From Octopus sinensis (lineage: Eukaryota): a stretch of DNA of 64,000 bases. The stretch is taken from positions 93,310,001 through 93,374,000 of the forward strand of contig NC_042997.1 of the NCBI RefSeq assembly GCF_006345805.1, written 5' to 3'. How positions within the stretch are numbered: position 1 is the stretch's first letter; each line of letters opens with the position of its first letter. The position numbers were made by a program. Shown here in pieces: positions 15,001 to 64,000 of the stretch.

Positions 15001-18000
15001 CACAAATTTCTAATTTTGTCAACATCTTTAACATTTGTATTTCTATAATTTTTTCAAATTGTGTATTCCATAATGAGCTAACTTGTTTCTGAACCATTAC
15101 ATTATTATGATTATACAAATAAATATATCATATAATTTCCATTACGTATTATTCTCATGATGCAACCCATTGGTTTTTTTTTAGTTTATAAATTATTATA
15201 AAATGCTATGTATTTTAGCATTCTATGTAAAGGTATGCATAATTCTAATTATTTAAGCTAGTTGCAAATTATCTAATTTAATCTAAGGTGATGATGAAAA
15301 CAATGATGATGATGAAGAAAAAAACATTTTTAATGTATTCATATCAATTGATATGAGTAGAGTAAAAATTATTATGAGGGATATTCAATCCTACATAATA
15401 TGAAGAATATACAAGATGTCCGTAAATTATCTTCGCAACTTCAACAATTTATTGAATCTATTTATTACATGCAAGCAATGGAGCCCACATAAACACATTC
15501 TCATATTTCTAATAAAACAGAATTTATTTGTCTGTTTTCCGATAAACTCTGCTGAGTAATTCTTATTTTTAATTTTTTTCTGAATCTTTCAAATTGTAAT
15601 TTATGGATACTCTGTATCATATCAGGTTCAGAAATAATACTCTGATTCAGTCAACTCTGGATTTAGAAAAAGAAAGGTCCAAGGCTACTTTATTTTTGAG
15701 TATTTTCCCAAAAGAGCCTAAGACAGTATAAAAAATATTGAACACCTTGACCAATGAACACCTAGATTCTGAAGTCCTAAATTTCAACCCACCAAACCTA
15801 TAGGTAAATCCTACACTAGATACAGTGTCAAAATTCCAGCTGATCTGTGATTTTCTAATGGCAAATAACAGTGAATTCCATATTTAGATTACAAAATTTC
15901 AATTCATATTTTTCTATAATAGTCACAAAAGTGGATCACTTTAAAGATGATTGAAGTAATACAAAACTTTATAAACAATATATTGACATATTCCTTTATT
16001 TTTCAGGTTAACTTTATACTCCAAAATGCATCTAACCCTGAAGAAATGATGTGTTCAGAATATGGACTATTGACGTCATGGGCTATGTCTCCAGATATAC
16101 CAGTTGAAAGCCTAGAGGCTATATTTTGTAAATCAAATTTCACACGTCTGCTTTTGAAACTTTCTTCTTTTGCAGAAGTTTATATGATGGTAATTTTCTT
16201 CAGTCTTTATATTTACAAATTATATATGAGATATACAGATGAGCTCCAACTGCCCAATAGCATGGTTCATTATGAAGTGTGTAAACTGATCATACCTCTG
16301 ATCATACCTCTCATGCCTTAATGCCAGTGTACTGATACCACTTTAGTGGAATTAAGTGTTTGACATTCTCATCAGCGATATTATTCACTCAAAATTCTGT
16401 GAGCAACTGTCCTAGAACTTCATGACTACTGGTGTTCCAAATCTCTGTGATTGTAGTTACTCTATCAAGCTAGAGTGAAGCCAATCATTGCATTACTTGT
16501 TATAGTTTGGGTTAATTCTTCCAGTTTTAACAATATCCTGATGATTAAAATATTTTGATACAGGAGTCTCTTTTGCAAGAAACCTCTTATAATCATAAAA
16601 TAGACATGACCTCAGTGGAATTTTGATCAATCTGCAATATGTAAACTAAACCAGTTAATTGTCCTTTACAACACAAAAAAATGTTGATATAGTAGTAAGT
16701 TTTCTCTCATAATTTTGAAATTGAAACATTTAATTAACAGATGACACACCTGCCTGTCAAAGGATTGAAGTTCAGATGTCATCCAGATCTTATCCTTAGA
16801 ACTGAGCAGAGATTCTTGAGTGACAAACTTGCTACAAATAGATATGATTTGAGATGGAAAAATTAGTGCTACATACAGTTAACTAACAAACATTTGATTA
16901 ATTTGCAGTGCTCTGGTGCTTAAGTACATCCTTCCTAAATATATATTCATTCTCTATGTTAATGATGTTCAATCATAACAGTCATTTCTATCCACATACA
17001 TTAAAAGGGTGCCTGTAGTTGGTTGCTTGACCAGATAGAAATAGCAGCCAAATCTTCCTCAGATCATTACCCTTTGTGTAAAAAAAAAGTTACATTAGGT
17101 GGGTATGGCCTATGCCTGAATAAAAGACTAGATGTCCACTGTTAGTATGCTTTGATCACTGGTCTGCTCAGTCAGACTGACAAAATCAATAATCAGTATC
17201 AACTGTTATGTCGTTACTCGAGTGCTAAACATTATGTGACAGGTAACTTTGAAAGAATACTTATACAACCATGAGTGCAGTTAGGAAATATGGTATACGT
17301 ATAATAACTAAAATTTGACATCAGGGTAGTGAGCTGGCAGAAACATTTGCAAATGTGTCGGAACAATTGTTGTGATTAACAATAAATTCTCATATATTTT
17401 ATCTTCCTGTCTTTCATTTACCATATATATATATATATATATATATATATATATATATGCATTATATATATATATATACATACATATATATATATGCATG
17501 CATGCATGCATGCATACATACATACATACATACATACATACATACATACATACATACATACATACTGTTATAATGTAATTGTTAAGTACAATAGATAAGA
17601 ACCAGACAACAGTAAAAAATTGTAAGGAACTGAAGTAACAAATCTCTTTACGAACCAACAATCAATATTCCTTGTGAACTAACCAACCAACACCTTCCGA
17701 CTTCACTGTAAACTATCACAAACTTCACTTGACTCCGAACTCTGAACCTTTTAACTCACTCGTATCATTACGATTTATACTTTATTCAGACCAGTCTATC
17801 TTTCACAAGGGGGCACCATAACTCTCATCACAGCACATGTATACATACATGACAACTTTATGGAGTTAACACTGAAGATATTACCCACATCATAAGCAGT
17901 TATCCAAAAATGTCATCATGGTATTATCTACCAATGGGACACGATGTTGTAGCTGGAACACACTATAATAAAATCCGTTAAAAGGATAACCCTGAGGACA

Positions 18001-63000: not shown

Positions 63001-64000
63001 ACCAACCACATGGTTCCGGGTTCAGTCCCACTGCATGGCACCTTGGGCAAGTGTCTTCTGCTATAGCCCTGGGTTGACCAATGCCTTGTGAGTGGATTTG
63101 GTAGACGGAAACTGAAAGAAGCCTGTCGTATATATGTATTTGTGTGTTTGTGTGTCTGTGTTTGGCCCCCTAGCATTGCTTGACAACCAATGCTGGTGTG
63201 TTTACGTCCCCGTCACTTAGCTGTTCGGCAAAAGAGACCGATAGAATAAGTACTGGGCTTACAAAGATTAAGTCCCGGGGTCAATTTGCTCGACTAAAGG
63301 CGGTGCTCCAGCATGGCCACAGTCAAATGACTGAAACAAGTAAAAGAATAAAAGAAAAAAAAAGTTAATCCCCATGGGAAAAAGTTATCATCAAATTAGA
63401 GATGGCAACTTGGCTGCTATAGCTGTTGTTGTTACTGTTTGACTGAAACCAGACTGTGGTTTGCTGTGTCTGAGGTGATGTGTTCCTGCCTCAAATGTCA
63501 GATACCAATTGAAATATGACTGTCTTTTACTATCTTCCATAATAACTATAGAAAAGTTGAGTCATGAAGTGGAAAAGTTAAGTTGTCACTTTTGATTAAT
63601 CAAATTAGACCAAACATTAAAATCGTTTGTTGAAAGGCTAATAGACAAACAAGAAATAAAAATATACCCTTGTGATTTTCAATACAATTTTACAACTACA
63701 TCAAGAATTCCAATCAGTGAACCACAGTTTACAACTTGAATCTAGCCAGAACTTCTGCTTTGCACGTATTATATTCTAATTATGATTTTATCCTTTCTTT
63801 CATTTCCTTTTATTTTTATTTTAGATTGAAAAATTATTTGATGAAAATACTTGGAAAACAATTTGTAGTGACAAAAATATGTTCTATGAAATATTTGCTC
63901 CTGCCACTGTATCAATTGATGACATTGATGAAGTAAGAAAAGCTGTATGTGACACATTAATGAATGGCATTGATACTAAGAAATTACAGATGCAACTGAT

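Follow-up and report, generated by a model that had tools for sequence, protein, structure and literature searches.

Sequence comparisons support the placing of a 64,000-nucleotide stretch of the Octopus sinensis genome (contig NC_042997.1 of assembly GCF_006345805.1, positions 93,310,001 to 93,374,000 of the forward strand; hereafter the window) inside a plus-strand gene for a predicted giant ABCA-type lipid transporter of ~6800-7100 residues, whose first exoplasmic domain (ECD1) contains many tandem copies of a module of ~225 aa encoded by four exons. The window is AT-rich with a GC content of 0.29-0.42 and has no N. It was searched exon by exon, and the analyses of whole modules were carried out on database proteins rather than on the joined exons of the window. 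Two predicted database gene models, P0021 (7118 aa) and P0022 (6779 aa), matched these exons. Residues 530-1958 of both models were placed by tblastn on 26 plus-strand pieces of the window, and the exact matching of 7-mers gave 26 colinear plus-strand blocks for P0022 residues 538-1958. One more 7-mer match, isolated at 59452-59472 and corresponding to P0022 residue 3922, was discarded as due to chance. In all the 25 introns a single GT...AG pair restored the P0022 sequence across the junction. Thus, all the 26 exons are on the plus strand and fall inside a single gene, and the part encoded by them is P0022 residues ~537-1958. An Rfam scan of both strands of the window gave no family at the gathering score.

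From position 16007 onwards, the exons form five complete modules and the beginning of a sixth, and each complete module contains four exon types (E1 to E4) with the phases 0-0, 0-2, 2-1 and 1-0, respectively. Module 1 is located at 16007-16189 (E1, which holds the Cys pair), 19267-19478 (E2), 21266-21408 (E3) and 22998-23110 (E4), and module 2, in the same order, at 27368-27562, 30983-31191, 34162-34298 and 37181-37320. Module 3 spans 38717-38899, 40595-40797, 41959-42110 and 44914-45044; module 4 spans 48703-48930 (E1, which holds a third Cys), 50987-51183, 54036-54169 and 54380-54513; and module 5 spans 57144-57341, 59045-59262, 60217-60359 and 61811-61947. The E1 of module 6 (63825-64000) is truncated by the window end, and an acceptor, a P0022 match and a profile match were obtained for it. 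Every exon of modules 1 to 5 has a splice solution. In addition, their E1 and E2 exons matched the module profile (E 2.1e-5 for E1 and 1e-5 for E2 of module 1, and E 1.5e-8 for E1 of module 2), the E3 and E4 exons of modules 2 to 5 matched it as well, and those of module 1 were placed by their match to P0022. All six module starts (16007, 27368, 38717, 48703, 57144 and 63825) have a pyrimidine-rich tract and AG directly before and an open frame after them.

The five full modules measured 217, 227, 223, 231 and 232 aa as calculated from the exon lengths. The order of exon phases was the same in 5/5 modules, giving internal introns in phases 0, 2 and 1 and both module ends in phase 0. When the introns were located on the module profile, their columns were found to be constant, with the first at column 59 in four of the five modules (64 in module 4), the second at 127-138 and the third at 180-182. 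The unit has the same phase at its two ends, and both the phases and the positions of its introns are kept between the copies, as in the phase-symmetric repeat cassettes known elsewhere, where a multi-exon unit bounded by phase 0 is arranged head to tail and its copy number varies between relatives. The unit here differs from those cassettes in being a 225-aa helical domain of the transporter's own ECD1 and not a mobile domain like EGF, Ig or FN3. Because every cassette is in phase 0 at both ends, its copy number could be altered in frame by unequal crossing-over or exon skipping, which fits the unequal copy numbers among relatives described below.

The phase cycle was found to extend upstream of 16007. 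An E3-type exon of 140 nt in phase 2-1 (U1, 2029-2168) and an E4-type exon of 122 nt in phase 1-0 (U2, 4640-4761) are the third and the last exon of an earlier module. U1 encodes P0022 residues ~537-584, has an acceptor, a split codon and a donor, and matched profile columns 129-174 (E 0.0036), and U2 was placed by its P0022 match and splice solution. An iterated profile, by which the modules of the relatives were counted at an independent E-value (i-E) of <1e-3, gave a full module at P0022 residues 419-619, and U1 and U2 end that module. The next three exons, U3 (E2-type, phase 0-2, 233 nt, 6467-6699), U4 (E3-type, phase 2-1, 110 nt, 10145-10254) and U5 (E4-type, phase 1-0, 95 nt, 14900-14994), were taken as a module without E1 because they have the phases of E2 to E4 and come directly after the end of the earlier module. 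In the profile search U4 came 20th among 1570 open reading frames (ORFs), with columns 141-177 matched at E 0.55; U3, which opens this module, gave a weak match (columns 73-99, E 3.4) and was classed from phase and order, and U5, which was placed by its P0022 match and splice solution, was classed from phase and order only. A decayed E1 was searched for in the 1.7-kb intron between 4762 and 6466, and none was recognisable there (best match E 4.4). The module starts, the 26 exons, the lengths and the phase cycle had all been proposed in an earlier sequence-only reading of the window, and every figure was reproduced here, with a unique GT-AG pair in 25/25 introns and the P0022 sequence restored at each of the 25 junctions upon splicing. 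The phase symmetry of each cassette and the serial duplication of an old four-exon unit, also proposed there, agree with phase 0 at the start and end of 5/5 modules and with the phases, intron positions on the profile and protein-profile homology that are common to all the modules.

The pairwise identity of the window modules was 8.1-19.1% (10 pairs), and none of the 66 self-hits of the window DNA was an exon-to-exon similarity between modules. The low protein identity had been noticed by the sequence-only reading as well, yet profile homology could be detected. Identities in this range are near that of unrelated proteins, and on this ground the phase cycle and the motif could be viewed as chance features of unrelated exons. 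This view is refuted by the five identical phase cycles with introns at the same profile columns, and by the leave-one-out and independent-profile results. In the leave-one-out comparison, the profile scores of 13/13 P0022 modules were higher than the best of ~100 shuffles. A profile made from six modules (P0022 residues 771-2141) found seven further full-length modules downstream with i-E of 8e-10 to 2e-21, and a profile made from seven modules outside the window gave 97 bits for module 5, 81 for module 6, 25 for module 3 and 17 for module 2, when the best of 300 shuffles scored 9.6. An independent test was made with a profile built solely from non-cephalopod sequences (103 modules of 15 proteins), which was searched against all the 1570 six-frame ORFs of the window. 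Ranks 1-21 were all exons of the model, all on the plus strand and each at the expected part of the profile; they comprised 6/6 E1, 5/5 E2, 4/5 E3, 4/5 E4 and two upstream exons. Twelve of these were at E <0.01 and the remaining nine at E 0.07-0.98, with the first non-exon match at E 0.99, and therefore these nine count through rank and register only. No module-like minus-strand ORF was found above E 0.99 among the 1570 ORFs, and E3 and E4 of module 1 were missed by this profile. Two Cys residues were invariant across the six aligned E1 exons, and the Cys pair was present in 16/16 P0022 modules, with exactly two Cys in 15 of them and three in one. Judged by these profile comparisons, the repeat is real at the protein level.

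The host of the array was searched with a profile of the E1 alignment against 1.84 billion representative proteins. This gave 20 proteins at E ≤0.001, including 4 at ≤1e-10 and 1 at ≤1e-30, which were mostly giants (the longest of 6516 aa) in which as many as 15 separate stretches were matched; a word-index search with one E1 exon peptide gave no match among proteins of ≤2000 aa. Among the matches of the E1 profile, an ABCA core was present in P0002, P0005, P0013 and P0017, and an ABCA N-terminus in P0007-P0009. The top match, P0001, is a partial hypothetical protein of 4510 aa from Argonauta hians that contains modules only, and its first 700 residues used as a query led to the gene models P0022 and P0021. 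The precomputed Pfam domains of these two models are ABC_tran (PF00005), ABC2_membrane_3 (PF12698) and R1_ABCA1 (PF23321), and they lie outside the window. The N-terminus of P0022 aligned with 18 other ABCA-type N-termini and has a hydrophobic segment at residues 21-47, and no 19-residue stretch with hydropathy ≥1.6 was found in residues 51-5250. Residues 5074-6737 of P0022 were 42% identical to the core of P0005 (over ~1690 residues), which in turn matched solved ABCA1 end to end with 1222 bits and also solved ABCA4, ABCA7 and ABCA3. Given the N-terminal helix, the lack of a hydrophobic stretch in 51-5250 and the core beginning at 5074, the ~5000 residues in between were taken as one ECD1, which reaches from the first membrane helix to the first membrane domain. 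Both P0021 and P0022 thus have the make-up of a full ABCA transporter, that is an N-terminal helix with a large ECD1, two ABC domains, two ABC-2-type membrane domains and a regulatory domain.

The nearest named relative, P0001, being all modules without an ABC domain, and several other matches being module-only fragments, the array could alternatively be encoded by a gene of its own, with a secreted protein of helical repeats as its product, and its union with an ABCA transporter in the gene models would then be an annotation chimera. We consider this very improbable. The layout of N-terminus, modules and core was found in P0002, P0005, P0013, P0017, P0021-P0025 and in bee and wasp proteins, which are independent models from different phyla; the copies at the two ends of the array are themselves the ABCA ECD1 segment in its canonical form; P0022 residues 51-5250 contain no signal-peptide-like or membrane segment; and P0001 is flagged as partial and its start coincides with an exon boundary of module 4. 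The giant ABCA transporter, which the sequence-only reading had offered as a candidate host, was therefore borne out by gene models that match the window exons and carry the ABCA N-terminus with its membrane helix on one side and the ABCA core with the ABC domains on the other. Hosts of the spectrin, stereocilin/mesothelin and apolipophorin types had also been considered and were set aside once the gene models were seen to carry ABC domains.

The domain that forms the module had been left without a name, and it can now be named from its similarity to a part of the transporter itself. When 87 internal modules were aligned by hhalign with the segment following the first transmembrane helix (post-TM1 segment) of 10 invertebrate giants, the probability was 98.1% with E 7.7e-14 over 203 columns, and Cys fell on Cys. 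The post-TM1 segment of P0022 (residues ~193-403) was matched by the iterated module profile with i-E 3e-5, and the N-terminal segment of P0007 aligned with internal modules of that same protein without a shift in register (BLAST E 1e-10 to 1e-5). Residues 1-277 of P0009 aligned with residues 1-283 of the solved ABCA4 chain, and P0005 from residue 2276 aligned with solved ABCA1 148-1142; both alignments include the Cys pair with the spacing of the module, at positions ~205 and ~232 of the ABCA4 chain. The ABCA4 residues ~138-271 are described as a flexible apical lid of ECD1 that was unresolved by cryo-electron microscopy (cryo-EM) (bioRxiv 10.64898/2026.06.25.734683; PMC8219669), and variants of uncertain significance are reported to fall in this lid (bioRxiv 10.64898/2026.06.25.734683). 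Because the module is homologous to the post-TM1 segment, and this segment aligns at the lid of ABCA4 and ABCA1, the array can be explained as a tandem amplification of the lid. By this homology the module is a copy of the ABCA ECD1 lid segment and the array an amplified lid, whose outermost copies on either side have kept a canonical appearance. Like the lid of ABCA1, ABCA4 and ABCA7, the module would be helical and exoplasmic, and it is homologous in register over the 203 columns with both Cys aligned. The difference is in the number, as ABCA1 and ABCA4 have a single copy and the giants 13-28 in tandem, and neither the profile search nor Foldseek gave a direct match to the solved chains, the homologous ABCA4 residues ~138-271 being themselves among those unresolved.

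No described Pfam repeat accounts for the module in the Pfam copy used. Nine exon peptides gave nothing at E <0.03 or at the gathering score, the arrays of P0001 and P0005 and the modules of five further multi-module proteins gave none, and with 14 single modules no family was matched by more than one member. Two families of a newer Pfam release, PF26955 and PF26219, have a distribution across the matches that does not fit the module, as PF26955 is missing in both P0007 and the module-only P0001 and PF26219 is listed only for P0007. When the module profile was compared with Protein Data Bank sequences, the best match was a C-type lectin neck repeat (E 0.0014), which was rejected as a coiled-coil-like chance match.

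The copy number of the module differs widely among relatives. P0022 has 13 clear modules and ~16 by the iterated profile, which gave 21 in P0001 of Argonauta, 14 in P0024 of Haliotis rufescens, 28 in P0007 of Ptychodera flava, 18 in P0023 and 13 in P0025. In three proteins from bees and a wasp, for which the NCBI name is ABCA13 or "lipid droplet defective", 1-4 modules were counted. Between the two close gene models, which are ~90% identical and differ by ~340 aa in length, the numbers of clear modules are 15 in P0021 and 13 in P0022, a difference that may be a real change in copy number, the result of skipped exons or an assembly or annotation artefact. Two modules of P0021 (residues 2623-2809 and 3270-3433) are without the E1 part. 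The gain and loss of modules, which the sequence-only reading had predicted from phase symmetry, is supported by the E1-less module in the window, by the 13 and 15 clear modules of the close gene models and by the ~21 modules of the Argonauta fragment. Modules 4-6 of the window have one-to-one counterparts in Argonauta hians at 40-47% identity, when the next-best module is at ≤26%; together with seven further modules they form a colinear series of one-to-one counterparts at 40-48% identity, and they are therefore older than the split of these two lineages. In P0001, modules 7-17 include about ten extra modules without a one-to-one counterpart in the protein of the window, and one P0022 module has two equally good best matches there, modules 8 and 16 with 188 bits each, which suggests a recent block duplication. 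In comparisons with the proteins of Haliotis and Ptychodera and with P0023, clear counterparts were found for the first and last copies only. A C-type lectin domain is located inside the array of P0009 (residues ~640-760) and also in that of Ptychodera flava P0007. Such an insertion is in keeping with an exoplasmic position, and it hints that the deuterostome relatives may bind sugars.

Vertebrate ABCA13 and ABCA12 resemble these giants in general layout, a single membrane helix being followed by a very long exoplasmic part, which is said to hold no known domain (PMC7948424; PMC13161189), and by the ABCA core, and the sequence-only reading had pointed to them for their long ECD1. As named orthologues they were not borne out, since the module was undetected in eight vertebrate ABCA13 proteins, which are bird and turtle sequences. 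The NCBI names of the insect relatives are what points towards the ABCA12/ABCA13 clade. An array ancestral to the bilaterian ABCA12/13-type transporters, from which the long region called "domain-less" in vertebrate ABCA13 would have diverged beyond recognition, is opposed to an independent amplification in each invertebrate lineage. The ancestral array is possible but at present doubtful. It agrees with the occurrence of arrays in molluscs and a hemichordate and of reduced ones in bees and a wasp, and the only match found in vertebrate ABCA13, a weak one, is the Cys-pair segment before the core, which keeps the expected register (hhalign E 0.34; HMMER i-E 0.0088 and 0.079). Set against this, 0/8 vertebrate ABCA13 proteins had the module at i-E <1e-3, that single hhalign match between the module profile and the vertebrate ABCA13 alignment had a probability of 0.2%, and the vertebrate N-termini part from those of the invertebrate giants after about residue 95. 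Furthermore, only the first and last copies are one-to-one across phyla, an outcome that would be equally expected from lineage-specific expansion. The gene structure also differs, as the ECD1 of human ABCA13 is said, after work by Prades and colleagues in 2002, to be partly encoded by one 4.8-kb exon, whereas the octopus module is split over four exons.

As for the origin of the array, these comparisons indicate that it was built by repeated internal duplication of the lid-encoding cassette, and that the copies were added at the far end of ECD1, a place in which enlargement leaves the base and the tunnel undisturbed. The exoplasmic topology of ECD1 is established for ABCA1 and ABCA4, and the array is accordingly predicted on the extracellular or luminal side. 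Each module may be stapled by a disulfide between its two Cys residues, and the array would be heavily N-glycosylated; in P0022 residues 46-5070 the number of N-x-S/T sequons was found to be 95, against 51.1 ± 6.0 in shuffles. The array could then form a long mast above the lipid tunnel of the transporter, and this mast would lengthen or repeat the surface of the lid at which lipid is taken up or passed on, and might possibly direct the protein to a compartment as well. Lipid-like or cholesterol-like densities are reported in the tunnel and lid of solved ABCA transporters (cited in bioRxiv 10.64898/2026.06.25.734683), the long region of mouse ABCA13 is described as required for vesicular localisation and cholesterol internalisation (PMC7948424), and the export of toxic lipids is attributed to Drosophila Ldd (PMC11900885). 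A mast of lid copies that extends the surface for lipid hand-over is nevertheless a tentative proposal, and a passive role in spacing or sorting is about as likely.

In that passive role the array would be a spacer, a glycoprotein brush or a sorting signal with no part in lipid handling, and its length rather than its sequence would be under selection. An inter-module identity of 8-19%, with the Cys pair and a few motif positions conserved, the labile copy number, the sequon enrichment, and the altered localisation that is described for mouse ABCA13 upon removal of the long region (PMC7948424) are all compatible with it. It is less easily reconciled with the full-length profile homology to the lid, where the lipid-like or cholesterol-like densities have been reported (bioRxiv 10.64898/2026.06.25.734683), and with the 40-48% identity of orthologous modules between two octopod lineages, which implies a constraint on sequence; like the lipid hand-over, we regard it as possible and short of probable. 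A more far-reaching form of the duplicated-lid proposal, in which 13-28 disulfide-stapled and glycosylated copies of the lid, the least understood part of ABCA1 and ABCA4, make a mast of tens of nm that serves as a serial track holding lipid or carrying it away from the membrane, for example into cuticle, mucus or a vesicle lumen, with its length tuned at the phase-0 boundaries by evolution and perhaps by cassette skipping and with the vertebrate ABCA13 region as a diverged remnant, is speculative and would be rather unlikely to hold in full.

Taken together, we assign a probability of about 85% to the reading of this gene as a giant ABCA transporter whose ECD1 is largely an array of duplicated lids. 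A number of observations weigh against it. At the level of the gene, the support for each junction consists of gene models and splice consensus. At the level of the repeat, modules 1 and 4 were barely above the shuffles in the leave-one-out comparison (14.5 vs 7.9 and 16.1 vs 7.9 bits), and the profile of seven modules outside the window gave just 1.6 bits for module 4 and no match for module 1. The iterated profile may have been subject to drift; it nevertheless gave 0 matches with two proteins that were probably false positives in the first search, and with eight vertebrate proteins. The link to solved structures is indirect, because it was obtained via the N-terminal and pre-core copies only. 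No ABCA chain was among the 10 matches at E ≤10 when the module profile was searched against Protein Data Bank sequences, and the whole P0001 searched by phmmer against solved structures gave 0 matches at E ≤1. AlphaFold2 on one module gave a mean predicted local distance difference test (pLDDT) score of 54.4 and a predicted template modelling (pTM) score of 0.28 with an alignment of 14 rows, and 67.2 and 0.34 with 19 rows. Both models were all-helical with 14 helices, so the helical nature that had been suggested for the module agrees with them, at low confidence, these models being its basis. A common fold was not recovered, as Foldseek of the two models against the Protein Data Bank gave 0/18 and 0/10 matches at E ≤0.001, all being at E >2. 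The module was not detected at i-E <1e-3 in any of the eight bird and turtle ABCA13 proteins, which is a non-detection and not a proof of absence, and because of this the transfer of the mouse ABCA13 result to the octopus protein is weak. Finally, the disulfide, the glycosylation, the shape of the mast and the lipid handling are predictions from sequence.

The ABCA13-type transporters are the largest ABC proteins. Their long N-terminal region was described in a 2020 paper as lacking both conserved domains and any homology to known proteins (PMC7948424), and the ABCA13 structure is called largely unexplored in a 2026 review (PMC13161189). A published description of the repeat was searched for in open-access papers and bioRxiv, and none was found. 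The gene is already present as database predictions, and it is the reading of its giant domain that appears to be new. If it is correct, the giant ECD1 of invertebrates follows a simple grammar in which the transporter's own apical lid is copied many times, with the Cys pair and the cassette of four exons kept in each copy. A featureless region of 5000 residues would be resolved into units of ~225 aa that are open to expression, folding, counting and deletion, and the array would provide many natural sequence variants of the lid, the part that cryo-EM left unresolved in ABCA4. It would also be a clean case of a domain that grows as a cassette of several exons is duplicated in frame, the number of copies differing between related octopods.

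The introns of the window contain other repeated sequences. The comparison of the window DNA with itself gave 66 pairs of interspersed repeats of 75-90% identity, every one of them intronic, for example 14233-14783 with 32059-32614, 46895-47322 with 55916-55497, and 55504-55911 with 62971-63352. Two copies of ~670 bp at 25998-26653 and 29200-29861, which are 85% identical, lie 3 kb apart within one intron. The intronic ORFs at 34491-34943 and 29124-29303 on the plus strand resemble the helix-turn-helix domain of a Mos1-type (mariner) transposase (E 2.6e-13 and 1.8e-10, respectively). Long microsatellite-like tracts, the frames of which read as runs of CMYV or HTYI, were observed at 17333-17661, 18396-19159, 21866-22197 and 29860-30027, and a tandem array with a period of ~63 bp is located at 30198-30728.

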